64,000 nt of DNA from Malacoraja senta (taxonomy: Eukaryota). Shown piece after piece: positions 1 to 61,810 of this stretch (its first letter is position 1; every line of letters starts with the position of its first letter). The position numbers and the translations under genes were made by a program. The stretch is taken from the NCBI GenBank assembly GCA_038087875.1, contig CM075990.1, forward strand, positions 62,001 through 126,000, in the 5' to 3' direction. The notes beneath the pieces were generated by a model that saw nothing but the letters and a program-made list of their open reading frames with translations, was not told where the DNA came from and searched no databases.

Positions 1-155
1 GAATTTCCAACTTATCTGATGAAGCATTGAATGTATATATGAGTAAGTGCCTAAAATATAATGGCAATCCAGAGTACATTATTAATGAAGAATTATCATT
101 TTCGTCATTACCTTACAATACAGCTCTTTGATTAGCGATTAACGTTCACATCATG

Positions 156-720
156 AAAGTACACAAAAATGTTGGAGAAACTCAGCGGGTGAGGCAGCAT
201 CTATGGAGAGAAGGAATAGGCAACATTTCGGGGCAAGACCCTTCTCCAGACTTATGTCTGGGGGAGCGGGAAAAAGAAAGAAAGAGGTGGAGACAGGAGG
301 CTTGTGGTAGAGCTGGGATGGGGAGGGGAAGGAGGGAGAAAGCAAAGACTATCTGAAATTGGAGAAATCGATGTTCATACCGCTGGGGCGTAAACTACTC
401 AAGCGAAATATGAGGTGCTGCTCCTCCAATTTGCACTGGGCCTCACTCTGGCCATGGAAGAGGCCCAGGATAGAAAGGTTGGATTCGGAATGGGAGGGGG
501 AGTTGAAGTGCTGAGCCACCGGGAGACCAGGTTGGTTATTGCGAACTGTGCGGAGGTGTTGGGCGAAGTGATCGCCAAGCCTGCGCTTAGTCTCGCCGAT
601 GTAGAGAAGTTGACACCTGGAACAGCGGATGCAGTAGATGAGGTTGGATGAGGTGCAGGTGAACCTCTGCTTCACCTGGAAAGATGGCTTGGGTCCTTGG
701 ATGGAGTCGAGGGGGGAGAT
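156..720 (-). mobile_element. Penelope-like retroelement 3' fragment: GIY-YIG endonuclease C-terminus plus 3' UTR/pLTR with degenerate hammerhead
   Basis: ORF 349-723(-) has FTCTSSNLIYCIRCSRC..LYIGETKR..HF..H..GMNIDF (PLE GIY-YIG). 156-251 matches the repeat unit found many times in the window. Confidence 0.9.
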
Positions 721-2955: not shown

Positions 2956-3240
2956 ATAATTTATTTAGGTATATAAATTAGTACAAGTGTCAGAAGTTGT
3001 GGGGAGAAGGCAGGAGTATGGGGTTAGGAGGGAGAGATAGATCAGCCATGATTGAATGGTGGAGTAGTATTGATGGGCTGTATGGCCTAATTCTACTCCT
3101 ACTCCATATACACTGCAGGCTCAATATCTGGTTTGTGTAGACGTTCCTTACATCACACATTCTGTCTCCATTCTGCAATAATTATTCCCAGTTAGTTGTC
3201 AAAAATTGGAATGAGCTAATGTTTATGGAACTAATGTTTA

Positions 3241-3703
3241 TGAAGATAGATACATAAAGCTGGAATAACTCAGTGGGACAGGCAGCATCTCTGGAGAGCA
3301 GGATTAGGCGACATTTCGGGTCGAGACCCTTCTTCAGACTGGTTAGGGATAAGGGAAACAAGAGATATAGATGATGATATGGAGAGATAAAGAACAATGA
3401 ATGAAAGATATGCAAAAAAGTAACGATGATAAAGGAAACAGTTTTTTTTTAAAAACAGGGTTAGCTTTTTGTATGGTGAGAACGTGAAGTTAATGAGACT
3501 TGGGTGGGGGAGGGATAAAGGGAGAGGGAATTCCGGGGCTACCTGAAGTTAGAGAAATCAATATTCATGCCACTGGGCTCTAAGCTGCCCAAGCAAAATA
3601 TGAGATGCTATTCCTCCAATTTGCATTTAGCCTCACTCTGACAATGGAGGAGGCCTTGGACTGAAAGATCTGTGTGGAAAAGGGAAGGAGAATTAAAGTG
3701 TTT
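3241..3703 (-). mobile_element. Penelope-like 3' fragment with hammerhead core
   Basis: GIY-YIG C-terminal coding remnant 3545-3700, 3' UTR, and hammerhead motif at 3308-3340. Confidence 0.85.
3308..3340 (-). ncRNA. Minimal type I hammerhead ribozyme motif (PLE-associated)
   Basis: Minus strand reads AGU-CUGAAGA-A-GGGUC-UC-GACCC-GAAA-UGUC-GC: conserved core boxes, 5-bp stem II, GUC cleavage triplet. Confidence 0.75.
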
Positions 3704-3834
3704 ATGGAGGATGGGAGACAGGAGGCTGGCCAGGCATTATTCTGGGGTAGAGTGCAAGATAATCTGTGAAGTGAGGTGGTGTTGATATTCCCATGGTGGA
3801 AACAAGGATTCCCTGTGACTGGGATAAGATGCTA

Positions 3835-5800: not shown

Positions 5801-6244
5801 AGCATGTAGCTAAGTTAAATAAGGGGATGCTCAGAAAGAATTGGTGGTGAGTTGAAGAGTGAAATTATCATACATAACCTCTATCAATGTTATGCTCTTT
5901 TTATTTAAAGAGGTACTTTGATGAACTGTATGCAAGAAAATAAAAATCACTGTACCTTGGCACATATGACTATAAAAATCCATTGAAACAAAATTACTGA
6001 ATTACCAAAGAATTTGTAAGTAAATTAAGGTTATGAACAACATTTGAAATGATCTAATTTATACCCAAACCTTGCTTTTTTTTTTCTATTACACTGTAGA
6101 TGCAGACATAACATTTATAGAATTACAATTTATTTGATATTCCTGCATATTTGGGACTAGAGGTGTCTCTTCTTTCAATGTTACATTGTGTTGCAATAAA
6201 GTTTCCAATGAACCCGGGAAGGTAAAAGGGAATACAAGGGATTG

Positions 6245-6490
6245 TAGATACTGATGAATCTTTATGAATAAACAAAGTGCTGGAGGAACTCAGCAGGTCA
6301 GGCAGCAAATGTGGAAGGAATGGACAGATGACGTTTCGGGTCAGGAACCTTCTTTAGATTGAAGATAGCCACAAAATGCTGGAGTAACTCAGCGGGACAT
6401 GCAGCATCTCTGGAGAGAAGGAATGGGTGATGTTTCAGGTCAAGACCCTTCTTCAACGTAAACCAGCATCTGCAATTCCTACCTACACTT
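6245..6490 (-). mobile_element. Two tandem short Penelope-derived hammerhead units plus a short inverted tail
   Basis: Units end at CTTTAGATT (6360) and CTTCAAC (~6457); AACCAGCATCTGCAATTCC follows in inverted orientation. Confidence 0.75.
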
Positions 6491-6954: not shown

Positions 6955-8290
6955 ACATAGAAACATAGAAAATAGGTGCAGGAGTAGGCCATTCGGCCCT
7001 TCGAGCCTGCACCGCCATTTGATATCATCATGGCTGATCATCCAACTCAGTATCCCATCCCTGCCTTCTCTCCATACCCCCTGATCCCTTTAGCCACAAG
7101 GGCCACATCTAACTCCCTCTTAAATATAGCCAATGAACCGGCCTCAACTACCTTCTGTGGCAGAGAATTCCACAGATTCACCACTCTCTGTGTAAAAAAT
7201 GATTTCCTCATCTCGGTCCTAAAAGTCTTCCCTCTTATCCTTAAACTGTGACCCCTAGTTCTGGACTTCCCCAACATCGGGAATAATCTTCCTGCATCTA
7301 GCCTGTCCAACCCCTTAAGAATTTTGTAAGTTTCTATAAGATCCCCCCTCAGTCTTCTGAATTCCAACGTGTACAAGCCGAGTCTATCCAGTCTTTCCTC
7401 ATATGAAAGTCCTGCCATCCCAGGAATCAGTCTGGTGAACCTTCTCTGCACTCCCTCTATGACAAGAATGTCTTTCCTCAGATTAGGAGACCAAAACTGT
7501 ACGCAATACTCCAGGTGTGGTCTCACCAAGACCCTGTACAACTGCAGTAGATCCTCCCTGCTCTTATACTCAAATCCTCTTGCTATGAATGCCAACATAC
7601 CATTTGCTTTCTTCACTGCCTGCTGCACCTGCATTCCTACTTTCAATGACTGGTGTACCATGACACCCAGGTCTCGTTGCATCTCCCCTTTTCCTAATCG
7701 GCCACCATTCAGATAATAGTCTACTTTCCTGTTTTTGCCACCAAAGTGGATAACCTCACATTTATCCACATTATACTGCATCTGCCATGCCTTTGCCCAC
7801 TCACCCAACCTATCCAAGTCACCTTGCAACCTCCTAGCTTCCTCCTCACAGCTAACACTGCCCCCCAGCTTTGTGTCATCTGCAAACTTGGAGAAGTTGC
7901 ATTCAATTCCCTCATCCAGTTCATTAATATATATTGTAAATAGCTGGGGTCCCAGCACTGAGCCTTGCGGTACCCCACTAGTCACTGCCTGCCATTCTGA
8001 AAAGGACCCGTTTACTCCTACTCTTTGCTTCCTATCTGCCAGCCAGTTCTCTATCCACATCAATACTGAACCCCCAATACCATGTGCTTTAAGTTTGTAT
8101 GGTAATCTCTTATGTGGGACCTTGTCGAAAGCCTTCTGAAAGTCCAGATATAACACATCCACTGGTTCTCTGTTATCCACTCTACTAGTTACATCCTCGA
8201 AAAATTCTATAAGATTCGTCAGACATGATTTACCTTTCATAAATCCATGCTGACTTCTGCTGACCATGATAAATCCATGCTGACCATGCT
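6955..8290 (-). mobile_element. Young 5'-truncated CR1 LINE with uninterrupted RT frame, inserted in a Penelope pLTR
   Basis: About 400 open codons (QHGFMKGKSCLTNL..DFQKAFDKV..GVPQGSVLGP..FADD..WNSLP) in ORF 7047-8486; (CATAGAAA)n tail at ~6955; host PLE split at GACA. Confidence 0.95.
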
Positions 8291-8875
8291 GACAGGCAGC
8301 ATCTCTGGAGAGAAGGAATGGGTGATGTTTTGGGTCGAGACCCTTCTTCAGACTAGTTAGGGAAAAGAGAAATAAGAGATATATACGATGATGGCGAGAA
8401 TAAAGAACAATAAATGAAAGATCTGCAAAAAAGTAACGATGATAAAGGAAACATGCCATTGTTAGCTGTTTGTTGAGTGTAAACAAGATGCTATTGTAGC
8501 TTGGGTGGGGGACGGATAGAGAGAGAGGGAATGCCTGTTTTACTTGAAGTTAGAGAAATCAATATTCATACCACTGGGCTGTAAGCTGGCCAAGCAAAAT
8601 ATGAGATGCTGTTCCTCCAATTGTGTTAGCCTCATTCTGACAATGGCCTGTTTCCTTTATCATCGTTACTATTTTGCATATCTTTCATTCATTGTTCGTT
8701 ATCTCTCTACATCGTTGTCTATATCTCTCATTTCCCTTATCCCTAACCAGTGTGAGGAAGGGTCCTGACCTGAAATGTCCCCCATGCCTTCTGTCCTGAG
8801 ATGCTGCCTATCCCGCTGAGTTACTCCAGCTTTTTGTATCTATCTTCAGTTTAAACCAGCAGCTGCATTCCTACA
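8291..8875. mobile_element. Penelope-like 3' fragments as an inverted pair (minus 8291-~8625, plus ~8630-8875)
   Basis: Both arms carry the same UTR and hammerhead-like motif in opposite orientation. Confidence 0.8.
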
Positions 8876-9413: not shown

Positions 9414-9619
9414 GATAGACACAAAATGCTGGAGTAACTCAGCGGGACAGGCAGCAGCTCTGGAGAGAAGGAATGGGTGACTTTTCGAGTCGAGACCCTT
9501 CTTCAGACTCGAAACGTCACCCACTCCTTCTCTCCAGAGATGCTGCCTGTCCCGCTGAGTTACTCCAACATTTTGTGTCTATATTCGGTTTAAATCAGCA
9601 TCTGCAGTTCCTTCCGACA
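9414..9619. mobile_element. Fold-back pair of short Penelope hammerhead units
   Basis: 9414-9481 is the near-perfect reverse complement of ~9516-9583; the junction lies within the hammerhead motif. Confidence 0.85.
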
Positions 9620-11650: not shown

Positions 11651-11859
11651 TCTTTAACTCAGCGGGCTGGCAGCATCTCTGGAGAGAAGGAATGGGTGAT
11701 GGGATGACATTTCCAAATTGGGGGGGGTGAGTGGGGGGGGGGGGGGATGGAGGAGAGAGGGTGGAGAGAGGAGGGGGAGACAGATGGGGGTGTCTTCATT
11801 CACTGGCTGCGGGTGCCTGTCACTGAAACAGGTAGGTGAGATTTCACATCCACCTTGTT

Positions 11860-12207
11860 ATTCTTCAGCTCATTAAAGAGCTCAGGTGAAATTCTGATGA
11901 CATTTTTAAATGCAGATTTATCCTCTTCACACAGCACATTAAGCAGCTTTTCATACTGTCCAAAGAGAGATCTCCTTTGAAACAGGGGCTTCACCCACTG
12001 AGACTTCTTAATTTTCCTCTTTACTCTCTCTCTTCTGCCTTCATTACACAAGCGTCCTTGTATCACATTAAGGGCTGCAGCATACAGCACTTGAACAAAA
12101 AACATCACCATCCTGGACTCCAATAGCCTTCTTGCAGACATTTTCTCCAAAAGCCAATTTAAACACGGCAGGCTTTTTAAATATGTAAAAAAAAAGCATG
12201 ACATCAT
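11860..12207 (-). pseudogene. Harbinger transposase N-terminal fragment
   Basis: RRERVKRKIKKSQWVKPLFQRRSLFGQYEKLLNVLCEEDKSAFKNVIRISPELFNEL fits the W-V-x-P..R..GQY..L..ED..F.N..R..P..F.EL N-terminus of HARBI1-like transposases. Confidence 0.75.
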
Positions 12208-13386
12208 TTTTTTAACATGTGATGATTTTTCAACACGTCGATATACATTGTTGCCTCAAGATTAACGGGAGAGGAACTTGGTACACTCGGGAGACGAACT
12301 TGGAACATCGCAGAAATGAGAAGTAAACGGCAAACTTAGACATACCCGTGGGAACTCGGTTAAACTCTGGATCATAAACTTGTAGTATCGTACGCAACCA
12401 CGAGTCTTTCACTCGGGGTCACTCGTGGGTCAACTCGCACAGTGAAACAGGGCTATAACTATTCATGTTCTGTTACTATTCTATTGCTATTCTGTTACTA
12501 TTCTGTTACTATTCATGACCATTTGGAGATATCCCCCAAATTACTTGTTGGAAAGTTAACCCAACCAATGTTATTCCTGAGTCTCGATCTGTGTGGTGCC
12601 TTGAACCTTGGCTTCAGTCAAGTGAAGAAGAGGACTGGTTTAATATTCAGGGAGGGCTAGATGTCTCTATGTTGGGAAGATTTAGCAGCTTATCAGCCAC
12701 ATCCTGCCCGAGGGATCTAGCAAAGGGTAATGGATACCTCCGTGAGAGAAAAATTACCTGGGAACAATTTGTGAAATTGCTGGCCTAGAGGAACAGTTCC
12801 ATGTCAAAGCATAAATCTTGATCCCATCAATGGTTGGCTGTGTAGTGCCAGTGGGTGACCACTGGGAGCATCAATGAGAACTGCCGACTGGCTTGTGGAA
12901 ACAGCCACATACGACGCAAGTAGCACACTGCTACCGAGACCACCGAGACGTGCAACTCGGAAATAAAGCAGTGGGTTTCAGGATGTTCACAAGTTATAGG
13001 AGTAGAATTAGGCCATTTGGCCCATCGAGTCTACTCCTGGCTGGTCTCCTCCTCCTAATTCAATTTTCCTGCCTTCTGCCAATAACCCTTGACTTGCATA
13101 AGTGTGCATTTACATACATCGACTATAACTTAAGTCGGGAAGTGCCTGTATATCTTTTGATATGAATAAAGTTTATTTTTGAAATAAAAAATGTAGAGAT
13201 TTAGACATAATCCAACCCGTGGTGGAGACCGCTGCAGAGAGTAGGGCAGAGGACCGGAAGGACAGGTATGAGAGCAGAAGCAGATATTTACCCTCTGTTG
13301 GAAGGGGTGAAGATTGGCAGAGAAGTCCTGCGAATGAACCCAGGAAGCGACCAAGAGATGAAAGGGAGCTCCAGGCAGGAGGAAAA

Positions 13387-13570
13387 GTGTAGGAAGGAAT
13401 TGCAGATGCTGGTTTAAACCGAAGATAGACACAAAAAGCTGGAGTAACTCAGTGCCACAGGCAACATCTCCAGAGAGAAGGAATGGGTGACGTTTTGGGT
13501 TGAGACCCTACTTCAGTCTTGACACATTCTGAAGAAGGGTCTCGACCCAAAACATCGCTCATATGCTTCC
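13387..13570. mobile_element. Short Penelope hammerhead unit with inverted partial copy
   Basis: Minus unit 13387-13517; plus-strand CTGAAGAAGGGTCTCGACCCAAAAC at 13529-13553. Confidence 0.8.
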
Positions 13571-13689
13571 ATTAACCAGATAGAGCATTTAAAGCAGGCA
13601 CTGGTGTAATGTTGGTGAGTAGGTTGCTGACAACACCAACATTGGAGGAGTTGCACACAGTGAGGAATTCTGTCAGAAGCTACAGCGGG

Positions 13690-15122: not shown

Positions 15123-15812
15123 GATAGACACAAAAAGCTGGAGTAACTCAGCAGGTCAGACAGCATCTCTGGAGAAAAGGAATAGGTGATGTTTATTCAG
15201 TCAGGGGAAAGGGAAATGAGAGATATAGATGGTGATGTAGCGAGATATAGAACAAATGAATGAAAGATATGCAAAAAAGTAACGATGATAAATGAAACAG
15301 GTTATTGTTAGCTGTGGGTTAGGTGAGAATGAGTTACAGTGAGATTCAACAAGACGACTTTGAAGCTGGTACGACTTGGGTGGGGGAGGGATGGAGAGAG
15401 AGGGGCGATGCAAGGGTGTAGGAAAGAACTGCAGATGCTGGTTTAAATCAAAGGTAAACACAAAATGTCGGAGTAACTCAGCCAGACAGGCAGCATCTCT
15501 GGAGAGAAGGAATGGGTGACATTTCGGGTCGAGACACTTCTTCTGACTGATTCGGGGATGCAAGGGTTGCTTAAAGTTAGAGAAATCAATATTCATTCCA
15601 CTGACCTGCTAAGCTGCCCAAGCAAAATATGGGATGCTGTTCCTCCAATTTGCATTTGGCCTCACTCTGACAATGGAGGAGGCCCAGGATAAAAAGTTCA
15701 TTGTGGGAATGGGAAGGGGAATTAAAGTGTTTAGCAACTGAGAGATCAGGTAGGTCCAGGCAGACTGAGCAAAGGTGTTCAGCAAAATGATCGCCCAGTC
15801 TATGTTTGGTCT
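15123..15812 (-). mobile_element. Penelope-like 3' fragment with a second short hammerhead unit nested at ~15416-15555
   Basis: GIY-YIG C-terminal remnant 15570-15810; GATGCAAGGGT is duplicated on either side of the nested unit. Confidence 0.85.
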
Positions 15813-19894: not shown

Positions 19895-21870
19895 TGATTA
19901 AAGATAGTCCGCGGGTCTCCATTAAGGCAGATGAAAAATCAGGATGGCTCTTTAGTTGTTGGTAGGATGGTTCAGTTGCCTGGTAACAGCTGGGAAGAAA
20001 CTGTCCCTGAATCTGGAGGTGTGCGTTTACATACTTCTGTAACTCTTGCCTAATGGGAGAGGGTAAAATTGGGAGTGACTAGGTGAGACTGGTCCTTGAG
20101 CATGCTGGTGGCATTGCCAAGGCAGCATGAAGTGTAAATGGAGTCAATTGATGGGACATTGATTTGTGTGAACAATTCTTGTGCCCACAATTATTTGCAA
20201 TTTTTTGTGGTCTTGCATGGAGCTCTTCCCAATCCATGCTGTGATGCATTCCAATAAAATGCATTCTACAGTGCATGTGTAGAAGTTAGTGAGAATTGTT
20301 GGGGACATGTCGAAATTCCTTAGCCTTCTAAAAGGCCTGTCTCACGAGTCTGCGGTCATTGGCGGCGAAACAGGAAGAATCTACCGCTCCTGGGCCGCCA
20401 TAGACCGCGCACTCGGTCAAACGCACAATTCCGGGGCCGTGCGGCGTTGTTCCCAACACCGCACGGTGCTAAAATAAAACCAACACTGTTCAAAAATATG
20501 TTCCTACCGCACAGCCTCCGCCAGTGAGGCACGAGTGCGGCACAGCCACCGCCACAGCCGCCGCCAGTGTGGCACGAGCGCCGTGCGTCGAACTTGCACC
20601 GCCACAGCCTCCGCCAGTGAGGCAGGTGTGCGGCACGGCCGCCGCCACAGCCAACGCTACAGCGCCGCGATCAGCACAGCCGCCGCCACAGCCGCCGCTA
20701 GTGAGTCATGTGTGCGGCACGGCCGCCGCCACAGCCACCGCTACAGCGCCGCGATCAGCACGGCCGCCGCCACAGCCCCGCAGATCCAAAATGACGTCAT
20801 CGCAGTCGGCCCTCCCTTTTTTTTACTGCAAGCTTGTGTGACCAGCCGTACTTAAATCACTCGGCCCCCGCGCAGCATCCGTGCGGCGCTCCCGTGGCAT
20901 AGGCGAAGCCGCGCTTCACCGCTGATGACCGCAACACCGTGAGACAGAGCATTAAGGAAGTAGAGGGGTCGGTGTGCTTTCTTGGCCCTTGCTTCAATAT
21001 GGCTAGTCCAGGACAAGTTGCTGGTGATATTGACTCCTAGGAACTTGATGTTTTCAACCATCTCTACCTTGGCGCTGTCAATGTATCCGTGGAATGTGTA
21101 CTGCCTTGCTTCCTGAAGTCGATCACTATCTCCTTTCTCTTGTTGATATTGAAAGGTTGTTGTCTCAACACCAGGACACGAGGTGCTCAATCTCCTTCCT
21201 GTACTCCGTCTTGTCATTATTTAATATTCGGCCCACAATGGTGGTGTTGTCCGCGATTTTGTAAATTGAGTTGAATTTGTACTTGACTGCACTGTTGTGG
21301 CTGTTTAACGAGTAAAGAAAGAGGCTGAAAAACGTAGCCTTGTGGAGCGCCCATGTTGAGGATTATCTCAGAGGATGATTTGTCCCCTACCCTCACTGAT
21401 TGGGGTCCATTAGTCAAGAAGTCAAGGATCCAGTTAAAAAGATGAGTGCAGACTCCAAGTTCCATAGGATTGGTAATGAGCTTGGATGGAATAATGGTAT
21501 TGAAAGCAGAGCTGTTGTCTATCAATAGAAGTCTAACGTGGGTGTCTCTCTTATCCAGGTACTTCAGGGATGAGTGTAGGGCCAGGGAGATGGCATCAGC
21601 CATTGACCTGTTGTGGTGGTAGGTGAACTGCAGTAGGTCAAGGTTGCTTGGTAGACACAATTTAATGTATTCCATAACCAGCCTCTCAAAGCACTTTGTG
21701 ATGATGGATGTCAAGGCCACTGGGCAGTTGTTGTTAGGACATGATATCTTGCTTCTCTTGGGCACTGGGATGATGGTGGTTTTCCTAGGGTATGGGGGTA
21801 CCTCAGAAGAGAGTATGGAGGGATTAATGATGTCCGTGAATACTCCCACTGGCTGGTCCATGCTACTAAG
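19895..21870 (-). mobile_element. Rex1/Babar LINE (RT to 3' end), split by a MITE
   Basis: ORF 21217-21936: TIIPVPK..PVALTSIITKCFERLV..QFTY..NRS..DAI..SSAFNTIIP..WILDFLTNGPQSV..GAPQG. Confidence 0.9.
20332..20952. mobile_element. PIF/Harbinger-type MITE with internal GC-rich repeats
   Basis: TIR AAGGCCTGTCTCACG / CGTGAGACAGAGCAT; TAA TSD at 20329-20331 and 20953-20955; the host LINE reads through once the insert is removed. Confidence 0.88.
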
Positions 21871-22580
21871 GGTGCGGTTGCAGGGGAAGGTACCTGGAGA
21901 GATGGTCGTTTTGATGGGAGGGGATGAATTAACCAAGGGGTTGTGAGCTTGGATGAATTAACCAAGGGGTTGTGAAGGGAACAGTCTCTGCAGAAAGCAG
22001 ATAGGGGGTGGAAATGGATAGATGTGATTAGTGGTGGAATCCCAATGGATTTGGCGAAAATGGCGGAGGATTATGTGTTGTATGCGACGGCTGATGGGGT
22101 GAAAGTTGAGGACTAGGAGGGACACTGTCTCTGTTACAACTAGCGGGAGGGGGAGCAGGAGTGGTTATCTATGTGTGGAGCTGCAGAAAATTAAACACGT
22201 GTCCCTATACTTCCTGGCAGTACTCCGTCCAAGGACCCCGACATTCCTTTCAGGTGAGGCAGAGATTCACTTGCACCTCCTCCAACCTCATCTACGATAT
22301 CCGCTGTTCCAATTGTGGACTCCTATATATCGGTGAGACCAAACGTAGTCTGGGCGATCGGTTTGCTGAAAACCTTCGCTCAGTCCGCCTAGGCCTATAC
22401 AATTTGGCAGTTGCCAAACACTTTAACTCCATTTCCCATTCCCATACTGAATTTTCTGTCCTGGGCCTCCTCCATTGTCAGAGTGAGGCCAAACGTAAAT
22501 TGGAGGAACAGCACCTTATTTTTTCGCTTGGGCAGCTTACACCCCAGCGGTACGAGTATTGATTTCTCTAACTTCAAGTA
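21870..22580. mobile_element. Penelope-like fragments, inverted (minus ~21870-22185, plus ~22195-22580 with GIY-YIG)
   Basis: ORF 22161-22562: FTCTSSNLIYDIRCSNCGLLYIGETKR..HFNS..KLEEQHLIF. Confidence 0.85.
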
Positions 22581-23324: not shown

Positions 23325-23566
23325 AAATATGGTTGGTTTGAAGTAAAAAGGCGCTGCCTGCAAATGGTTGTTTGGGGGGGTTGGGTTTGAAGTAAAAAGG
23401 CACTGCCTGCAAATGGTTGTTTGGCGGGGTTGGGTTGAAATGAAAAGGCACTGCCTGCAAATGGTTGTTTGGGGGGGTTGGGTTGAAGTGAAAAGGCACT
23501 GCATGCAAATGGTTGTTTGGCGGGGTTGGGTTGAAGTGAAAAGGCACTGCCTGCAAATGGTTGTTT
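23325..23566. repeat. 48-bp minisatellite, about 5 copies, inside Helitron
   Basis: Unit GGTTGGGTTGAAGTGAAAAGGCACTGCCTGCAAATGGTTGTTTGGGGG; produces 16-aa periodic ORFs. Confidence 0.95.
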
Positions 23567-23949
23567 GTCTAAACTTTACAACCAAAATTTCCTTTTTGCA
23601 CTATATTGATTTTAAATAAAACGCTACCACTTATGGCTGTGATTTTTGGCCATCTTACTCAGTTCCCCTCCGCTCATCAGGTGCAGAGGATTCTTCCCAT
23701 CAATGAAATACAAAAGTGTTATTAGTGTTTAAAAAATGATGAGAATCTCTCTCCTGTCAATCACGCCATGAAGGCCACAACCTTTTCTGGTGGGAGGGGG
23801 AGGGATTATAAAACCTGGAAATTGTGGGTGTGGCTCAGTCTCTGCATGATGGGGGAGGGAGAGGTCATGACTGAGCTGTGAATCAACTGAACACACTGAA
23901 TGTCTACTGAACTGTGAGTGTGGTGTTTGTGTGGTTTTATGGTGGTTTT

Positions 23950-24480
23950 TATGGTGGTTTCACCCTGCTTGAAATAGTATGAAACTGCATTTGAATGTGA
24001 TGGCCTTGCACAAAATGGTATGAAACTGCATTTGAATGTGGTGTCGTTGCACCCTGCTTGAAATAGTATGAAACTGCATTTGAATGCGATGGCCTTGCAC
24101 AAAATGGTATGAAACTGCATTTGAATGTGGTGTCGTTGCACCCTGCATGAAATGGTATGAAACTGCATTTGAATTTGGTGGCCTTGCACGCTCCTTGAAA
24201 TGGTATGAAACTGCAGTTGAATTTGGTGGCCTTGGTTGTAAACTGCACTTGAATTCGATGGCCTTGCACCCGGCTTGAAGTGGTAGGAAACTGAACTTGA
24301 ATTTGGTGGCCTTGCACCCTGCTTGAAGTGGTATGAAACTGCACTTGAATTTTGTGGCCTTGCAGCCTGCTAGAAGAGGTAAGAAACTGCAATTGAATTT
24401 GGTGGCCTTGCACCCTGCTTGAATTGGTCGGAAAATGGATTTGAATTTGGTGGCCTTGCACTCTGCTTGAAATGGAATTT
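23950..24480. repeat. 41-48-bp minisatellite inside Helitron
   Basis: GAAACTGCAT recurs at 23981, 24022, 24070, 24111, 24159 and onward. Confidence 0.95.
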
Positions 24481-35784: not shown

Positions 35785-36780
35785 TTAGATAGACAAGGGC
35801 AGTTTTGTACGTGTGTGATTGAGCCTTACAAATCTGACAGAGTTTTTTAAAGATGTAACCAAAAAGGTTGATGGGGCAGAGCTGTAGATGTTGTCTATAA
35901 GGATTTCAGCAAGGTATTAGACAAGGTACCATATGGTAGGCTGCTCTGGAAGGTTAGATCGCATGGGATCCAAGGAGAGCGAACCGACTGGATGGAAATC
36001 TGGCTTCATCGAAGGAAGCAGAGGCTGATGGTGGATGGTTGTTTTTCAGAATGGAGGCCTGTGACTAGTGGTGTGCCTTACGGATTGCTTCTAGACCCAT
36101 TGTTGTTTGTGGTTTACATCAATGATTTGGATGAGAACGTACAAAGCATGATTAGTAAGTTTGCAGATGACACCAAAGTGGGTGGTATTGTAGATAGCAA
36201 AGATGGTTGTCAAAAATTACAGCAGGATCTTGATCAGTTTGTTAAGTGGGCTGAGGAACAGTTAATGGTGATTAATGTAAGGTGTAGCATTTTGGCAGGT
36301 CTAACCAGAGTTAATAGCAGTACTGGAGAATGCAGATCTAGGAATGCACGTATATTGGTTCCTTGAGGGTGGCATCACAAGTAGATATGGTGGTCAAGAA
36401 GACTTTTGGTACATTGGCCTTCATCAGTCTGGGCTTTCAGTATAGAAGTTGGGATGTTAGGTTACAGCTGTACAAGGCGCTGGTGAGGCCAAATTTGGAG
36501 TATCATGTTCAGTTTCGGTCACCCTGTTGTAGGAAAGATGTTTAGGAAAGAACTGCAGAAGCTGGTTTAAATCATAAGTAGACACAAAATGCTGGAGTAA
36601 CTCAGGCAGCATCTCTGGAGAGAAGGAATGGTTGACGTTTTGGGTCGAGACCCCTCTCAGACTGATAAGAAAGATGTTGTTAAGCTGGAAAAAGTGTAGA
36701 GAAGAGTTATGGAGATGTTGCCAGGACTTGAGGGTCTGAGCTATAAGGAGAGGTTGGGCAGACTGGGACTGTATTCCTTG
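35785..36780 (+). mobile_element. Decayed CR1 RT fragment with a short PLE unit at 36543-36665
   Basis: ORF 35992-36366 (VTSGVP..YINDLD..KFADDTK); TSD TAGGAAAGATGTT/TAAGAAAGATGTT around the insert. Confidence 0.9.
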
Positions 36781-37927
36781 GTAGGCAAAAGTGCTGGAGA
36801 AACTCAGCGGTGCAGCAGCATCTATGGAGCGAAGGAAATAGACAATGTTTCGGGCTGAAACCCTTCTTCAGACTGATGTAGGGTGGGGGTGGGGGGGGGG
36901 GGGGCAGGGAGAAGAAAGGAGAAAGGAAGAGGAGGAGCCCGAGGACTGAAGGAGAGCTGAGAAGGGGAGAAGACTGCAAGGGTTACCGGAAATTGGAGAA
37001 GTCAATGTTTATGCCGCTAGGGTGCAAACTGCCCAATATGAGGTGCTGCTCCTACAATTTCCGGTGGTGTTCACTCTGGCCATGGAGGAGACCCAGGACA
37101 GAAAGGTCAGATTCGGAATGGGAGGGGGAGTTGAAGTGCTGAGCCACAGGGAGATCAGGTTGGTTAATGCGAAGAGCGGAGGTGTTCGACGAAACGATCG
37201 CCAAGCCTACGCTTGGTCTCACCGATGTAGATCAGCTGACATCTATAGCAGCGGATGCAACAGATGAGGTTGGAGGAGATGCAGGTGAACCTCTGTCGCA
37301 CCTGGAACGACTGCTTGGGTCCTTGAATGGAGTCGAGGGGGAAGGTAAAGCGACAAGTGTAGCATCTCTTGCGGTTGCAAGGGAAAGTGCCCGGGGAGGG
37401 GGTGGTGCGGGAGGGAAGGGAAGAATTGACCTAGGAGTTACGGAGGGAGCAGTCTTTGCAGAAAGCAGATAGGGGGGGAGATGGGAAGATGTGGCGAGTG
37501 GTGGGTCACCTTGGAGGTGGCGAAAATGACGGAGGACTATTTGTTGTATGTGACGGCTAGTGGGGTGAAAGGTGAGGACTAGGGGGACTCTGCCCTTGTT
37601 ACAAGTGGGGGGATGGGGAGAGCAGTGTTACGGGGTATTGAAGAGACCCTGGTGAGAGCCTTATCTATAGCAGGGAGGGGAACCCCCGTTCCCTGAAGAA
37701 TGAGGACATTTCCGATGCCCAGTTGTGGAACACCTCATCCTGGGAGCAGATGCGGCGTACGGAGGAATTGGGAGTAGGGGATGGAGTCCTTACAGGAAGC
37801 AGGGTGGGAAGAAGTGTAGTCTAGATAGCCATTGGAGTCAGTGGGTTTATAGTGGATGTCGGTCAGAAGTCTATCACCTGCGATGGAGATAGTGAGGTCA
37901 AGAAATGGTAGGGAAGTGTCAGAAATG
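36779..37927 (-). mobile_element. Penelope-like element, RT end through GIY-YIG to pLTR
   Basis: Colinear with 156-720 and with the reverse complement of 2280-2548; hammerhead motif at ~36845-36873. Confidence 0.9.
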
Positions 37928-38499
37928 GAGATTGGATAGATGGACAGAGGAGGGGAATCAAGAACCAGAGGACATAGGTTGAGGTGAGTGGAGTGTGGTG
38001 GATATATAGAATGAGCTTCCGGAGGAGGTAGTTATGGCTGAAATGATAACAACGTTTAAAAAGACATTTGGACAAGTACATTTGGACAAGTACGTGGATA
38101 GGAAAGATTTGGATGGATACTAGACTTGGTGGGACCCGTTGGGTCCCAGTGACACGGGAGGCCTGGTCCCCCAACGTAACCCGTTCCCCCATGCAGTATT
38201 GCAACACTCACCCATAGCCCCTAACTGCGCAGGCGCGGCTGACGGGTTATCGTTGTGACGCCCCTGATCCCCCCTCCTCCCCCCCCTCCCCACTCCACCC
38301 CTTACCCTTCCCCCCCCCCACGCACTCACTCCATCCCCCATCAACCCCCCCCCATAAACTCTTAGTGGCTCTCCGGCGGCGCAGCCGTTCCCGCCCATTG
38401 GGTCCCCATTGTGATGCAGAACGCGCAGGTATTACTGCACAGGCGCCGCTGACGGGCACGGCAAGTGGAAAAGGGATTAATTAAAGCTTAATATGTGAA

Positions 38500-44727: not shown

Positions 44728-45512
44728 AATGGTCAAAAAGGCTTTTGGCACATTCATCAGTCAGAGGAGTGAGTCTAGAGGTTGGGAGGTCATGTTGCAG
44801 TTGTATAAGACGTTGGTGAGGCCGCATTTAGAGTATTGTGTTCAGTTCTGGGCACCGTGTTACAGGAAAGATGTTGTCAAGCTGGAAAGGATACAGAGAA
44901 GATTCATGAGGATGTTGGCCAGGACTGGAGGGTCTGAGCTTTAGGAAGAGGTTGACTAGGCTGGGACTCTATTCCTTGGAGTGCAGGAGGATGAGGGGTG
45001 ATCTTATAGAAGTGTATAAAATCATGGTGTATAAAATCATGAGAGGAATAGATTGGGTAGATGCACAGAGTCTCTTGCCCGGAGTAGGTGAATTGAAAAC
45101 CAGAGGTTTAAGGTGAAAAGGAAAAGATTTAATAGGAATCCGAGGGGTAACTTTTCACACAAAGGGTAGCGGGTGTATGGAACAAGCTGCCAGAGGAGGT
45201 CCGTTGAGGCTGCGACTATCCCAACATTTAAGAAACAGTTAGACAGGTACATGGATAGTTGTTTAAGAAGGAACTGCAGATGCTGGAAAATCGAAGGTAG
45301 ACAAAAATGCTGGAGAAACTCAGCGGGTGTGGCAGCATCTATGGAGCGAAGGAAATAGGCAACATTTCGGGCCAAAACCCTTCTTCAGACGTACATGGAT
45401 AGGACAGGTTTGGGAGGATGTGGACCAAACGCGGGTAGGTGGGACTAGTATGGGCAGGGACATGTTGGCCAACGTGGGTAAGTTGGACCAAAGGGCCTGT
45501 TTCCACGCTGTA
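44728..45512 (+). mobile_element. CR1 3' fragment
   Basis: MVKKAFG..LYKTLVRPHLEYCVQFW and 3' UTR. Confidence 0.9.
45259..45390 (-). mobile_element. 132-bp Penelope-derived hammerhead unit with perfect 12-bp TSD
   Basis: GTACATGGATAG at 45247-45258 and 45391-45402; the unit begins GU-CUGAAGA on the minus strand. Confidence 0.92.
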
Positions 45513-46097
45513 TCAACCTATAGTGCATTATTATTGTCTTTTGTGGTACACAGTTGACACGATTGTTATCTCTGCCTTTGCTGCAACAGAGGTGTAAATG
45601 ACCTCTGAAAAATTCATAATACAAATCACAGGTTCAGCAAAAGCATCCAAAATACATGATAAGCAAAATGAAGGAAGAAATAACACAAATGAAGTAAGTG
45701 AAGGTAAGGCATATCAAGAAGGGCAGACATGCCCTGGGGAAAATTAGGGACTGCAAACCCATAAGTGCTTCAGAGCAGTGCGGACTGTGATGTGGATGCT
45801 GTCAGAGGGAAGGTGTGGGTGGGCCAGACAGAACGGATCTGTTGGACATGTTGCTGAATTGGAGGAAGCTCAGGTGGTGGATGAACAATTCCAGTAGTTG
45901 TTGCAGACACAAATCGCCTGTATCTGTGCCAAAAAAATGGTAAGCGTTCAACAAAGTGACAGTGGTAATTAATTTGAATAGAATTATCTCTTCAAAGATA
46001 TCAATGGAGGAGCCCTTTCATTTACAATGATATCAATGATATGAGGTGGTGGCAGGGTCCTCTATGAGTGTTTCTCCTCTGTTATTGACAAGACAAA

Positions 46098-51920: not shown

Positions 51921-51955
51921 CAGATGATTTTTTACGATATCACGGAATGGTAAAT

Positions 51956-52310
51956 GTGTAGGAAGGAACTGCGGACGCTGGTTTAAACTGAAGATTGACA
52001 CGAAAAGCTGGAGCAACTCAGCGGGTCAGACAGCATCTCTGGTGAAAAGGAACAGGCGTCGTTTCAGGTCGAGACCCTTCTTCGGGGTGAGAGTCAGGGG
52101 AAAAGGAAGTGAGAGATATAGAAGGTGATGAGAGGTATAGAACAAATGAATGAAAGATATGCAAAATGAAAGATATAAAATAAATAGGCCATTGTTCGCT
52201 GTTTGTCAGGTGAGAACAAGTACAGACAATGAGACACTGCAAGACGACTTTGAAGCTGGTACGACTTGGGTGGGGGAGGGATGGAGTTACGACTTGGGTG
52301 GGGGAGGGAT
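51956..52310 (-). mobile_element. Penelope-like 3' UTR/pLTR
   Basis: Same unit and UTR as 3241-3520. Confidence 0.85.
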
Positions 52311-54346: not shown

Positions 54347-55306
54347 TTAGTCAGGTTCCTGTGCTGAACCATTCTGACCCTTTAAATAATCAATAAAGGG
54401 AGACCATGTTCCAACGAATAATTCCTGTTTGTCCAACAGGGAAAATCTGATTCTTTCCACGTTTAAGGTCTCCGTCATTTCTATAATCCACATTTTGATT
54501 GTGGGGGCCGTAGGGCCTTTCCAACATTTTAGAATTAATTTTTTTCCTGTTATTATACTATAATCAATAAAGTTTCTTTGTGTTGTTGTAAATGTTTGAT
54601 TTAATTCTAATGTTCCGAGTATTATTAATTTTGGATCCGGGTCCACTTGTGTGCTGGTCACTTTAGATATTATACTAAAAATATTTACCCAGAATTTTTT
54701 AATTTTTATACAGTTTGCAAACATATGAGATAAGGTAGCTTCTAAATGTTGACATTTATCACATATAGGTGTGATATGTTGAAAGATTTTATGTAATTTT
54801 GTTTTTGAATAATGTAACCTATGTATTACTTTAAATTGTATTAAAGAATGTCTGGCATTTAATGAACATTGATGTATGTGTTGTAAACTTTCTTCCCAAG
54901 TATCTTTTGTTATTATTTGATTTAATTCTTTTTCCCATGTTTGTCTGTGTAAGTCCGTCGATGGAATGTCACTGTCTAATAAGATATTATATATATAAGA
55001 TATTAATTTTTCTGTATTAGGATGTTTATTCCAACATTCGTCAAGAATTTCTGAATTTCTAATTCGAAAATTTTGAGTATTCGATTTTACATAATCTCTA
55101 AGTTGAAGATATCTGAAATAATCATTTCCTCGAAGTCCATAAGTCTGTTGTAACTCCTGAAATGTCAGAAAAGTGCCTTTCTTATAAAGTTGTCCCATAT
55201 TTTTAATTCCATAATTCTTCCATTGTGTAAAACCCCTGTCCAACCATGAGGGCTTAAACAAAGGGTTATTCACAATTGGGAGAAAAAGTGATAAATTATC
55301 TAATTT
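54347..55306 (-). pseudogene. L1 ORF2 C-terminal segment (CCHC zinc-binding region)
   Basis: LIQFKVIHRLHYS..CDKC..ATLSHMFANC..FW..W..F. Confidence 0.92.
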
Positions 55307-55324
55307 AATTATTTAATTATCTAA

Positions 55325-56719
55325 TCAGATGGTTTAGGCTCTGAATTTTATAAAAAAAATTATGACTTACTCTGCCCACGTTTACAAAGGCTGTATGAGC
55401 ATATTTATACTCAACAGAAACTTCCAGATACTTTAAATGAATCTATAATAACACTTATTCCTAAAGCTGATAAAGATCCGGAAGATCCGGGATCATATAG
55501 AGCAATTGCACTTTTAAATACAGATCAGAAAATATTAACTAAAATACTAGCGCATAGATTAAGTACAGTGATGAATAAAATAATACACCCTGACCAAACA
55601 GGCTTTATTCAGAAATGGTACTCATATTATAATCTAAGACGATTATTTAATATTATTTATTCTAAGAGAATTATTAATGAAGATCTGGCAATAATCTCAC
55701 TTGACGCTGAAAAAGCATTTGATCAGGTTGAATGGTCTTATTTATTTTCGGTGATGGAAAATATGCAACTAGGGGAGAAATTCTGTACATGGATAAAACT
55801 GTTATATACAAATCCTACGGCTAGAATATTAACAAACCAAAGGTTGTCATCTAAATTCAGCCTATCTAGAGGTTGAAGACAAGGATGGCCATTATCTCCA
55901 TTATTATTTGCGCTTGCTATTGAGCCACTTGCAGAAAGAGTTAGGGGTCATCCGGAAATATATGGGTATATCACAAAGGACACAGTGAATAAAATTTCTC
56001 TATACGCAGATGATGTACTAATTTACATTACAAAACCAGAAATTAGTATTCCAAACTTATTAGAGCTAATAACCCAATTTGGTTCACTCTCAGGATACAG
56101 AATAAATTGGAATAAAAGTGAAATTATGCCAATAAGGGAACATAACAAACAGATAATACAACAATTTCCATTTAAAATAGTAAATGAAAAATTTAAATAC
56201 CTAGGTATTTATGTAACTAAGATATATACATCATTATTTAAAGCAAATTTTCCCCCATTACTGAATAAACTACATAAGAATATTCAATACTGGAAAACAC
56301 TTCCTATCTCAATGGTTGGCAAAATTAATGCCATATTATACCTTTTTCAGACAATTCCGATATATTTGTCAAAAAACTTTTTTAAAAAATTGGACTCCAT
56401 TGTTAATGATTTTATCTGGGATTATAAGAATCATAGGATAAACAAAAGACATTTGTGTAAATCAAAAATAAATGGAGGTTTGGTTTTACCCAACTTTCTG
56501 TTTTATTTTTGGGCAGTTAATATTAAAAATATGAATTTCTGGTTGGAAGAAATAGATCAACAACCAGATTGGTTAAAAATGGAAAAGGAAGATTGTTTGC
56601 CTTTTGATATCGGTTCGATATTATTTGCTACATCTAAATTAAACAAAAAAAATTATAGGGAAAACCCTATAATATTTAGTGCCATACGAATTTGGAAACA
56701 ATTAAAAAAGACATTAAAA
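55325..56719 (+). pseudogene. L1 ORF2 reverse transcriptase segment (inverted)
   Basis: DG..EFYK..YRAIALLNTDQKIL..DQTGFI..SLDAEKAFDQV..G*RQG.PLSPLLF..YADD..KYLGI; one frame with a single stop at 55874-55876. Confidence 0.93.
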
Positions 56720-57741
56720 TCCAAATAACATTCACACAATAATTCACAATATAACATAATTTTTAAATCTCATTTTCATGAATTTACAGGCCAAATGGAA
56801 GGAATTGAATGTTTAATACCTATAAATTAATGGGCATTTAAATCATCTTGTGAGTGAGGATTTCTGGAACGCGATCATTTGGAACGGTCATTTGCGGTGA
56901 ATTTAACCCCGTATTGGCATGCAAAATACTGCCGTTAGTTAGGGGAATAAAATCACCGTGTCGCATGAAAAAATGTGAATTAAAGGCTTCTTAAGAAGCA
57001 CTTTTATACATTTAAAGAAACCACTTTCGTTTACCTGTCCCGTGTGTGAAATCCGTCCCCGTTATCGGCGTTGACGCTTCAGGAGCTGCTTTTAAAATTA
57101 CTCTAGCGCTGACATTGACGATTTAGTAAAAATAAAAAATACACAAAACGCCACTAGGAACGATTCTTCAGCCAACGCTTGTACTCCAACAAAATATTAA
57201 CCAGGACAAGGGAGGAGAAACCCGCGTTTTAACCCCGCCCCCCCTTAAAGGCGCCAAAATCGCGCACACGGCCAGTGGCAGAATTACAGCGCGACTGAAG
57301 GTAAGTTTTGTAACATACCTAATATATGCACGCACTGGACCTTTTTTTTCTCTCATATCCATGATATTGTTTACAGTGCACTATGTTACATATTCTGTTG
57401 CGCTGCAGCAAGTAAGAATTTCATTGTTCTATCTGGGACATATGACAATAAACCACTCTTGACTCTTTTGACTCTTGATTGTAGTATGCTACAATGCAGC
57501 ATCGTATTGACGGGGAGACAAATATAGAAAAATAACAAAGTCAGCCCATTTCAAGAGGAGAAAGGGGCATGAAAGACGCAGGGGACAATTGGAATGTTAA
57601 ACTGTATCTTCTTTAATGCATAAAATGTGACAATGAATGCAGGTGATCTAAGAAAGTTGATGAGCACGTGGTATTATGATATTGGTGACATAACAGAGAT
57701 ATTGTTGAAAGAAAGTGCTTTTTATTTAACGGACGTCCTTA

Positions 57742-59589: not shown

Positions 59590-61810
59590 AGGGAAGTGCA
59601 TCTTGATCACGACTGGTGGCCCAATATTCTAGGGTACTGAAGCTTCAGGCATGATGGACATTGCTGGAAGGAAATGTAAAGGAGGGGAGGGCATAATGAC
59701 TGACATATTAAAATAAACCCATTACTGCGGTAAAGTGGGAGAATGCCTTGGAAAACTTCAAATTAGGCCATTTGTATCAGGTTTAGGAGCAAAAACTGAT
59801 GATCACTTTCTAGGGGTATATTCCAGCCCCGCCATATGGTCCTCAGAAGGTAGAGTCTAGATAAATCACAGAGATTTGGGGAAGAATTAGGATTATAGTT
59901 GTAGGCTTCAAGTTCCCCATTATTCACTGGCATCTGGTTACTATGAAATATGTGGAGTGTGGAATTTTTAAGAGCTTCTTAGAAAGATTTTTGACCCAAC
60001 GTGTAAATTGTTCTATTGGAGAAGAGGCAGTTTTAAACATAATACTTTATTACGTTTTATAGGAAAGAATTGCAGATGCTGGTTTATACCAAAGATAGCC
60101 ACAAAATGCTGGAGTAACTCAGCGGGTCAGGCAGTATTTCTGGAGAGAAGGAATGGGTGAAGTTTCAGATCGAGCTGGGCATGTGGAATGGCACTGGGCA
60201 AGTGAATGGAGTGTCAGTGGAAGAGCATTTTGAAGTTAATTACCATAACTGTCGGGTTCAAGGTAGGACAATCATAAACTTGGTCAAGACACTAATGTCC
60301 TGAATTGGGGAAATCTCACCTTCAATATCACAAGCAGGCAACCAAACTAAAATGGATTGGGCATAGAAGATAGACAAAAAATACTGGAGTAACTCAGCAG
60401 TTTGGATAGAAGGAATGGGTGACATTTCGGTCGAGACCCTTCTTCAGATTGGGAGCAGTTACTCAAGGTTGGACAACTTGCAGCAATTGGGAGATGTTCT
60501 ACCGTAAAATAATCAGAGTCTGGGGTAATATGAGTGTGAAAGGTACGGACAATAGTCCTAAAGAACCTGAGGTGTTAATTAATGCTAAGGGCCGGATATA
60601 GAAGTACAAGGAAGCGTATGGAAGGGGAAAGATAACTGAAAATGGGAGGTTCATCAAGTGTACAGAAACTGGGGGAAGGGGGGTAAAAGAACTCAGCAGG
60701 GAAAAGAGGAGGACACAAAATATCACAGGTTGACAAGAATAAATAACATTTTGAATTATTCTATTTACGTTAAGGGGAAGAGAGTAACAAGAGAAAGTGC
60801 AGCGCATTAAGGGGCTGTCCCACTGCGGCGACCTAATTGGCGAGTTTTAGAGAGTTTGAAAAAGTGTCATGTTGCAGACCTCCTTCAACTAGCTTCAACT
60901 AGCATCGACTAGCTTCGGGAAGATTGGACACCGAATAGTGGAGAGTGAAGACAACCTCCTTCGACCTCCCTTTGACATCCCTTCGACTATGTTGAAGACT
61001 ATCTACGACTATATACGACTACCTTTGAATACCTTTGACTTCCCTCGATTACCTACGAATAACATGCCGATCTACTATGACCTACTTAGACTAAACCTAC
61101 GATAAAAAAAAAATATTGATTTTGTTCCATGGCGACCTTTTTTAACTCGCGGGCATTTTTCAGCATGTTGAAAAATACGCTGCGACCTAGCTGAGGCCTC
61201 GAGTACGCGGGGACTACTCTCGAGCATGAAGGAGAGTTACAAAGACCTCCTAGGACCTCGTGTCGACCATGCTGTGAGTATGAGTCGAGGGCAAACTCTT
61301 CTAAACTCGAGAATTAGGTCGCCGCAGTGGGACAGGGACCAATATGGCAACCTCTGTGGAGCCAGTTGATGTAGGTGAGGGGGGGCTGGGGGGGATGGAG
61401 GAGTTTGCTGGTGCCCTAATAGTGATTTTTAATCTTCACTGTCTTCAGGTGAGATGCCAGATAACTGGAGGTCAGCAAATGTGGTACTTCTATTCAAGAA
61501 TGGCAGCAGGGATTAGCCAGGATTGTAACAACAGAGAATTTATTGGAAATTGTTCAACGAGGCAATATTAATCTGTACTTGGACAGGAAGGTATGAATCA
61601 CGAATAGTCAGCATGGCCTTGTTATGGCGGAGATACTCTCTCAACATTTGATAGATTTTTTATTTTTGAAGAGATAACTAAATATGATGATGAGGCCAGT
61701 GCAGTTGCCATAGTTTACTTAAACCAGTAAAGCCTTTGACAAGGTCCCACATGGGAGACAAATCAATGAAAAGGTTACTCACCATGGAATCCAGGGCAAG
61801 TTGTCACTTG
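59590..61810 (+). mobile_element. Old CR1 (EN-RT remnant) with nested PLE units (~60058-60170, ~60365-60449) and a MITE
   Basis: Decayed CR1 motifs (CTTCAAGTTCCCC, AGTCAGCATGG, AAAGCCTTTGACAAGGTCCCACATG). Confidence 0.65.
60810..61335. mobile_element. PIF/Harbinger MITE, right tip clipped
   Basis: TTA-AGGGGCTGTCCCACTGCGGCGACCTAATT / AATTAGGTCGCCGCAGTGGGACAG. Confidence 0.88.

Follow-up and report, generated by a model that had tools for sequence, protein, structure and literature searches.

Short hammerhead-bearing inserts in the window (the whole 64-kb stretch of DNA analyzed here) have a common 5' boundary at the 5' edge of the ribozyme motif: 11 of 25 assignable 5' ends lie within -7 to +4 of the G that precedes CUGAAGA. 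As far as sequence allows this to be shown, these short units appear to be insertion products of the same machinery that makes the long copies of their parent, a Penelope-like element (PLE). We consider it probable (about 0.6) that the element's mRNA starts at an initiator-like YCAGT before the hammerhead, and that RT starting ~95 or 131 nt downstream runs off the 5' end of this RNA; the support is indirect and consists of Inr- and TATA-like spacing and a weak hint of a cap-derived G. The fixed-boundary minis are a real, recurrent variant of a known element, and the mechanism is unproven but testable.

Unit positions are numbered on the focal insert, where +1 is the G of GTCTGAAGA (window position 45390, minus strand), and the predicted hammerhead cut is placed after +30. 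The focal insert and its host are as follows:

45259 to 45390, minus strand: focal insert, unit +1 to +132, subfamily A (hammerhead, RT-start region and tail).
45359 to 45390, minus strand: minimal type I hammerhead of the focal copy (2-bp helix I, CUGAAGA, bulged A, stem II, GAAA, AUGU).
45259 to 45292, minus strand: optional ~35-bp PLE tail of the focal copy, a putative second RT start site.
45247 to 45258: left copy of the 12-bp TSD, overlap of 12 in four empty CR1 sites.
45391 to 45402: right copy of the 12-bp TSD, a perfect match to the left copy.
44730 to 45521, plus strand: focal host, the 3' part of a CR1-type LINE (related to the ORF at 7050-8549 with RVT_1).

The CR1 label of the host LINE is presumed from its motifs. 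The core of the focal insert is 90-92% identical to those of the long copies at 251 and 36873. Its perfect 12-bp TSD, noted by the first-pass annotation, is upheld by the four empty copies, and the 12-mer occurs once in each of these four other CR1-type copies in the window. Four other short copies were delimited:

36540 to 36665, minus strand: stand-alone short copy with tail, 5' end at about -3 (36662), in CR1, TSD of 10-13 bp.
30502 to 30593, plus strand: stand-alone tail-less short copy, 5' end at about -1 (microhomology), in CR1, TSD of ~7 bp.
15417 to 15553, minus strand: stand-alone short copy with tail, 5' end at about -6, TSD of 11-14 bp, absent from the list of the first-pass annotation.
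60362 to 60449, minus strand: tail-less short copy, 5' end at about +2, weak 7-bp TSD, non-repeat flanks.

The TSD previously proposed for the copy that begins at 36662 (13 bp, one mismatch) is matched by an empty-site overlap of 10, and that of the 30502 copy is confirmed by an overlap of 7 in two empty sites. The fourth proposed stand-alone case, at 60449, has a real 5' end, but its TSD is a 7-bp candidate that overlaps the element, and the CR1 host assigned to it found no backing, as its flanks match no repeat in the window. The 15417-15553 insertion point is just past the ORF stop (~8 nt) of a long PLE copy. Both this insert and the one at 6360-6490 (below), which hit a CUGA box, landed in other copies of the same PLE, and there may be a preference for the element's own terminal repeat.

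What is the parent element? By their sequence the units are identified as terminal repeat (pLTR) pieces of a Neptune-type PLE, where the Neptune-type label is taken from a linker motif that is also common to Nematis. The long copies in the window are as follows:

160 to 718, minus strand: long copy of subfamily A, running from the GIY-YIG end through a pyrimidine-rich spacer and the hammerhead to a tail-less end, with a perfect 15-bp TSD.
36780 to 37950, minus strand: longest copy of subfamily A, running from the RT thumb through the CxxxxCxxC linker, GIY-YIG, spacer and hammerhead to a tail-less end.
3242 to 3704, minus strand: long subfamily B copy, reference for the read alignments, with a TATA-like motif at -29 and YYANWYY at the boundary.
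51952 to 52286, minus strand: long subfamily B copy with tail.
8291 to 8875: head-to-head pair of two long subfamily B arms, with its junction near 8647, away from the boundary.

In the long copies a GIY-YIG domain is followed by a pyrimidine-rich spacer and then by the hammerhead motif. The GIY-YIG family (Pfam PF01541) was matched at 352-747 (E 9e-5, above the cut-off) and at 22110-22559 (E 3e-4, below the cut-off), the linker of copy 36873 reads CNRKRCYTC and so has the Zn-finger-like form CxxxxCxxC, and by tblastn 37950-36995 aligns to amino acids 578-899 of a 902-aa RT+GIY-YIG protein, so that the RT remnants are thumb-side only. The PLE origin that the first-pass annotation had given to the units is thus borne out by the GIY-YIG upstream of the motif, the linker and the protein alignment. 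The Neptune and Nematis clades are recognized by a Zn-finger-like motif located between RT and EN (PMC8557442, in the text available). No full-length copy with a 5' pLTR (partial tandem) was found in the 64-kb window or in the scanned collections. The 560-bp copy at 160-718 has a perfect TSD, and long and short copies therefore insert alike.

The closest named proteins are skate gene models with 69-78% identity, which makes a skate or ray the probable source of the window. In three of these (P0001, P0003 and P0017) the C-terminal end is the GIY-YIG sequence of this PLE, and among the skate gene models that end in this way one is named neuromedin-U receptor 1 and one receptor-transporting protein 3-like; such protein ends reflect either exonization or misprediction. 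An ATG at +52 begins a frame that runs without a stop through the PLE tail in the one subfamily A copy (45390); in all seven subfamily B copies its phase is kept but it contains TAA. An N-terminus that corresponds to this ATG was seen by eye in none of the seven proteins examined (18 were listed).

The 132-bp unit gave 26 nhmmer matches in the 64-kb window including the query; the first-pass count was about 20 copies of one CUGAAGA-stem II-GAAA motif. The order of the motif is CUGAAGA, one unpaired A, a 5-bp stem II, GAAA and (C/U)GU(C/U), and the majority consensus ends in CGUC. Stem II positions pair in 93% of cells and helix I is only 2 bp, and the covariation observed for the hammerhead fold does not convincingly exceed that of shuffles, 17-41 of 500 of which reached the same values. 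The consensus contains CUGANGA, the bulge, stem II, GAAA, the palindromic ACGU and NUH, all the parts of a minimal type I PLE hammerhead, and this agrees with the earlier description of the motif as minimal and its ACGU as palindromic. Decay has affected most of the single copies, and the focal copy itself has AUGU in place of ACGU; its predicted cut would fall between 45361 and 45360. An Rfam search gave no hammerhead family at E<=5. In minimum free energy folding the stability of the units does not exceed that of their shuffles (z -0.78 to +0.64), the hammerhead fold is not adopted by the unit alone, and some copies allow the first nine bases at the 5' end to pair with +95..103. The unit also contains an inverted repeat, +2..13 with +38..51. 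A candidate antisense hammerhead was rejected, since its CTGAAGA, on the plus strand at 51988, proved to be the complement of +95..103 in one of the copies. The motif pattern had no match in viral contigs; its 12 matches in metagenomes were all judged to be chance microbial ones, and a protein-guided scan of viral contigs found no relative.

The position of the boundary was established as follows: 5' ends were set by eye from the alignment and backed by checks of TSDs and of upstream similarity, with segments 6359, 11728, 16309 and 64000 omitted from the count. Between -100 and +70 there are 17 ends, and 11 of these fall in one 12-nt window, a concentration that was reached in none of 200,000 uniform simulations. 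The 11 boundary ends comprise five stand-alone copies and six arms of head-to-head structures. Upstream of the boundary, none of these 11 copies resembles the long ones at p<0.05, and at least eight window copies reach 90 nt or more upstream of the boundary. Eight of the nine boundary sites that had been listed by the first-pass annotation are true 5' ends, and the ends at 13527, 15547 and the second arm at 25258/25260 are additions to that list. The ninth, 6360, was rejected; there the insert 6360-6490, which has a TSD of 10-13 bp, landed in the CUGA box of an older long copy (6236-6359), and the upstream sequence of the older copy resumes at 6500 (p=0.0015). Four of the listed sites (6457, 9508, 13517 and 25258) are arms of head-to-head pairs and not stand-alone units. 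The original observation mostly holds, the shared non-random 5' boundary included, and its interpretation, which left the 5' end of the RNA itself out of account, is partly supported.

The boundary lies 30-31 nt ahead of the predicted cut, and the unit extends ~65 nt (tail-less) or ~100 nt (tailed) beyond the cut, much as the first-pass geometry had it. Cleavage-defined ends were rejected: there is no excess of ends at +31, and neither the cleavage site nor the 3' foot of stem II shows an accumulation of ends in the window. The units are thus not cleavage monomers, as had been suspected, in that their 5' ends avoid the cut site.

At the other end the units fall into two classes. The 3' ends of 23 segments divide into 13 tail-less (~+92..101) and 10 tailed (~+125..132), and both classes occur in long copies (251, 3339 and 36873 are tail-less, 52087 and 8750 tailed) as well as in short ones. 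The lengths of ~95 and ~131 bp are those without and with the known optional PLE tail. The tail sequence CAGCAUCU (+106..113) can form an 8-bp stem with AGAUGCUG at +50..57, and a 4-bp GCUG/CAGC hairpin (+67..82) lies ahead of the first 3' end; in these two helices 88-91% of cells pair, without demonstrated covariation, and together they are a candidate RT-binding structure. Paired inserts in the window are as follows:

9414 to 9617: head-to-head pair, minus arm -1..+95 and plus arm +18..+131, 10-bp TSD, AGTC junction microhomology.
25135 to 25353: head-to-head pair, both arms starting at the boundary, junction near-palindromic, one arm tailed and one tail-less.
13385 to 13575: head-to-head pair whose two arms begin at the CUGA box, the minus one tailed and the plus one short.
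6360 to 6490: inverted tail plus tail-less unit, inside the CUGA box of the older long copy 6236-6359, which continues at 6500.

In the complete head-to-head pairs one arm is tailed and the other is tail-less. An optional tail at one end, inverted 5'-adjacent copies and TSDs, the marks of EN+ PLEs, are thus all found in the window. In published descriptions PLEs may have a tail of 30-40 bp and, next to them, an inverted and 5'-truncated copy (PMC8557442, PMC3846280, PMC2377424). In the main text on the Poseidon element PAc of the anole Anolis carolinensis, two internal RT start sites flank the tail, and extension takes place on both target strands; hammerhead cleavage is unneeded, no RNA reads stop at the cut, the template is uncleaved RNA, and trimming that template at its 5' end shortens the product (PMC11167929).

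The probable course of events can be stated as follows: The PLE protein would nick its target and begin reverse transcription inside the template, an RNA that would be uncleaved, at about +95 or +131. Two RT start sites are suggested by the two 3' end classes together with the in vitro behavior of the anole element. The PLE transcript would carry the RT-start region twice, in the upstream pLTR near its 5' end and again near its 3' end. A start at the 3' copy would give long, variably truncated copies, and a start at the 5' copy, or on a transcript from a lone pLTR, would run off after 95-131 nt and leave an integrated, strong-stop-like cDNA. For the RNA 5' end, Pol II initiation near -2..+1, at the YCAGT overlapping helix I, would be the likeliest origin, and the spread of ends from -7 to +4 may come from microhomology joining together with scatter of the start site. 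Priming on both target strands would join two cDNAs into head-to-head pairs, one tailed and one not. Dimer cleavage by the hammerhead, if any, would remove a 31-nt capped leader and would not set the ends of the inserts. Ends would be due at +31 from cleavage, near +22 to +50 from a stall at the fold, and at +2 from a splice acceptor; the ends found at -2..+1 make a template RNA that begins there the simplest account.

Initiator (Inr) and TATA motifs were scored with the consensuses YYANWYY and TATAW. YYANWYY is found at the boundary in four of eight long or mid-length copies, and TATAW at -29..-32 in five of six subfamily B copies and in neither of the two of subfamily A, counts that represent ancestral motifs in related copies and are not independent. 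A rotifer pLTR has a comparable pair of TATA and Inr-like motifs, in the text available (PMC3846280). The lack of the TATA-like motif in subfamily A counts against a start site at the boundary, as do two copies that extend beyond the predicted start, to -3 and about -6, and the case of Drosophila virilis Penelope, whose start site is described as ~120 nt upstream of its hammerhead and separated from it by an intron (PMC2377424, PMC4209133).

A fuller statement, to which we give slightly less than even odds, is that in skates and rays the Neptune mRNA starts on the hammerhead's first base, so that the hammerhead would be a self-decapping leader and the first 95-131 nt would be copied into an integrating strong-stop cDNA. 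If this is true, 25-50% of hammerhead-bearing copies would be by-products that record the start site, and the origin of fixed-size pLTRs and of retrozyme seeds would be explained. Lone pLTRs with an upstream TATA-like motif may themselves be transcribed and mobilized as a standing source of minis.

Is the boundary also present in other genomes? Four of 22 listed runs, from related organisms (at most 37% of words), were aligned on the long copy 3150-3760 at 80% likeness, where +1 is 3339. X22 is a poly(A) RNA run of which 6% was read and X7 is a contig run; the X7 and X1 counts are lower bounds. X22 depth falls from ~7050 (3318-3338) to 444 at 3344, and its loose ends at 3339, 3340 and 3341 number 829, 920 and 1822 reads. 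In X7 the same positions have at least 702, 680 and 1187 contigs, and X1 has at least 494 loose ends at 3339 and at least 823 at 3341. The boundary is thus the main 5' loose-end site, among the sites listed, in runs from related species. Loose letters at 3339 and 3340 agree at 0.31-0.34, as unrelated flanks would, and those at 3341 agree at 0.37-0.42 and derive partly from long copies of other subfamilies. The X22 loose ends make up 25% (3339 and 3340) to 51% (all three sites) of the depth, and the ~6% that continues is counted for the upstream sequence of the reference subfamily alone. The tail consensus is seen as a loose end at 3242. No pile-up of molecule ends is listed in these runs. X22 was read on both strands and is therefore mostly host read-through, a sample of genomic copies in which neither a start site nor a small circle could become visible.

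In all six rows at 3339 and 3340 the commonest first loose letter is a G 5' of the element, a weak hint of a copied cap, given as a modal letter without its frequency. This G is explicable at 3339 as plain transition in long copies and at 3340 by fold-back junctions like that of the 9508 pair, and a clear untemplated G was seen in none of the five stand-alone window copies. Untemplated G marks copies of capped RNA in L1 and SVA (PMC3287187, in the text available).

The boundary could instead be set at the level of DNA or cDNA, either by the GIY-YIG endonuclease cutting its own pLTR at the CUGA box during resolution of an intermediate, or by fold-back and self-priming of a cDNA end, for which the CAG-T-CTG quasi-palindrome and the +2..13 / +38..51 inverted repeat are the candidate sites. 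The insert at 6360-6490 hit its old copy exactly at the CUGA box, and nine of the ten inversion joints listed (among 15 of 366 joints listed) have one side at 3336-3342 and the other at 3295-3303, where the inverted repeat lies, although part of this may be an alignment break in another subfamily. Both ideas have precedents in the available literature, in which the palindromic head-to-head junctions of rotifer PLEs are interpreted as self-priming (PMC3846280) and the tail as endonuclease resolution (PMC8557442). But five of the 11 boundary ends are stand-alone copies with no fold-back, four of them with TSDs backed by empty sites, the loose flanks at 3339 and 3340 are unrelated sequence and not PLE ends, and neither the Inr/TATA spacing nor the 5' G is predicted. 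We regard this origin of the boundary as unlikely.

That RT stalls at a structure in the RNA, or at a protein that occupies the ribozyme, is quite improbable. Two window copies do end inside stem II (+15 and +18), and the pairing of the 5' nine bases with +95..103 noted above would also fit. RT meets the fold from its 3' side, however, and stalls are due at +22 to +50, whereas most ends lie beyond the whole fold; the first-pass suggestion of an RT stop at the ribozyme fold is unsupported on this point. In addition, the unit folds no better than its shuffles, and the boundary is passed by the ~6% of X22 depth and by the long window copies that reach 90 nt or more upstream.

There is only a slim chance that the boundary is a 3' splice site, with the pyrimidine-rich spacer, from ORF stop to CAG|TCTGAAGA, as an intron and the short copies derived either from an intermediate of splicing or from a spliced RNA whose first exon is tiny. 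The spacers at 3339-3542 and 36873-36985 (minus strand) do look like introns, beginning with GT at the stop codon and ending in a pyrimidine tract and CAG (YAG), and they are wholly different between the subfamilies; the D. virilis intron is described as ending at helix I (PMC4209133). The ends lie within the CAG (3339-3341), however, and the would-be exon start 3338, like the cut site 3310, is absent from the six loose-end sites listed per run. No joint that skips 3339-3542 is among the 15 of 366 listed, and no short copy joins ORF-end sequence to TCTGAAGA.

A separate retrozyme-like or SINE-like replicon, moving by a ~130-nt linear or circular RNA, has just as poor a prospect. Discrete size, TSDs and high abundance would suit it, as would the stop in the subfamily B frame from +52 and the derivation of animal retrozymes from pLTRs (bioRxiv 10.64898/2026.07.22.740005, in the text available), and in the related-species runs there are head-to-tail joints near the boundary, which are rare and occur in single-contig rows only. 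But the short copies are not monophyletic. The 10 short copies need five changes (shuffled mean 6.2) on a tree of 23 cores, weak at most of its branches and with a bootstrap that had yet to converge, and forcing them into one clade is rejected (AU p=3e-6). Mean identity is 81.4% between short copies and 80.8% between short and long ones, and the focal copy groups with the long subfamily A copies 251 and 36873 (95/85). The first-pass annotation had looked to a separate clade of short copies and had itself taken interleaving, the result obtained, as telling against its idea. Hammerhead tandem arrays were absent from 72 TRF rows except for one of 1.8 copies (6272-6453), which is the nested insertion of two subfamilies. 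The interleaved tree and the absence of tandem arrays leave a retrozyme-like minimal replicon, as earlier proposed, unsupported. The circular intermediate offered with it does no better, as a circle made by cleavage would be permuted at +31 or give multimers, and would not stop at -1. Tandem units, a family of their own and a canonical type I hammerhead (6-bp helix I, loop contacts) are all lacking in these units; retrozymes are described as tandem arrays with canonical type I hammerheads (PMC7229834), and the 2-bp helix I here is of the minimal PLE type.

An alignment artefact, caused by a low-complexity upstream spacer that differs between subfamilies, is largely refuted and scarcely credible: alignments between subfamilies do break at -2/-3 (the 3341 rows included) and site 6360 had been misread, but TSDs with empty sites fix the ends independently and the 11 boundary copies, as above, have no significant similarity to upstream sequence of long copies.

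The element itself, PLE pLTRs, tails, inverted pairs and dispersed minimal hammerheads are already known. Like the EN+ Neptune PLEs, the copies here have a C-terminal GIY-YIG, a Zn-finger-like linker, a terminal-repeat hammerhead and a one-end tail, as well as head-to-head pairs, TSDs of 7-15 bp, heavy 5' truncation and solo pLTRs; they differ in that many 5' ends are fixed at the 5' edge of the hammerhead, giving TSD-flanked solos of 95 or 131 bp, whereas the available descriptions are of variable truncation and of solo pLTRs that are often TSD-less recombination products (PMC8557442, PMC3846280, PMC2377424). With PAc the copies would have in common two internal RT start sites that bracket the tail, an uncleaved template, and cutting and extension of both target strands, and they likewise have no ends at the cleavage site; PAc belongs to another clade, its ORF starts in stem II, and its main text gives no start site or shared 5' boundary (PMC11167929). 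As in the minimal PLE hammerheads of PMC4209133, there is a long stem II with a bulged base, G10.1-C11.1, a palindromic 15.2-16.2 and a very short helix I, and the motifs are mostly single, dispersed and from truncated PLEs; that paper proposes cleavage and circularization, whereas insert ends here avoid the cleavage site. Non-LTR animal retrozymes are likewise short, non-coding, pLTR-related and equipped with a type I hammerhead, but they are tandem arrays with a hammerhead per unit and families of their own, and the units here are dispersed singles or inverted pairs interleaved with long PLEs (PMC7229834; bioRxiv 10.64898/2026.07.22.740005).

The run-off ends proposed in the start-site model can be likened to the full-length L1 and SVA 5' ends with a cap-derived G (PMC3287187). 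PMC12602865 calls Neptune poorly characterized, and its available text mentions neither pLTRs nor hammerheads. A fixed 5' end at the hammerhead edge was not found stated in the mostly open literature, in the parts available; the genomic-end figure of PMC11167929 may bear on it. PLE transposition, the origin of pLTRs and the role of the hammerhead are described as open questions (PMC11167929, PMC2377424). A sharp and very common 5' boundary is a natural read-out on these points, in that it would indicate that inserts derive from uncleaved RNA and singles out one nucleotide window. In practice, such minis can be misannotated as SINEs or as retrozyme monomers. The minus-strand strong-stop DNA of LTR elements, which is primed internally near the RNA 5' end and then runs off, is the analogue of the start-site model, from which the latter differs in that priming would be at the target and integration direct, involving neither a tRNA primer nor strand transfer.

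Several other repeats were noted in the window. A LINE remnant at 54347-56728 has RT motifs at 55325-56728 (plus strand) and a 321-aa ORF at 54347-55312 (minus strand), and resembles an inverted L1-type insertion; we take its clade to be L1-like. A second RT remnant, 21217-21957 (minus strand; RVT_1, E 4e-9), belongs to a LINE clade unlike the CR1-type copies. A 151-aa open frame at 11800-12255 (minus strand) has no Pfam match, and its C-terminal half presumably resembles the N-terminus of a PIF/Harbinger transposase. Minisatellite arrays lie at 23331-24475, 26589-27700 and 28975-29333, with units of 48, 40/80 and 30 bp, some of which are related.
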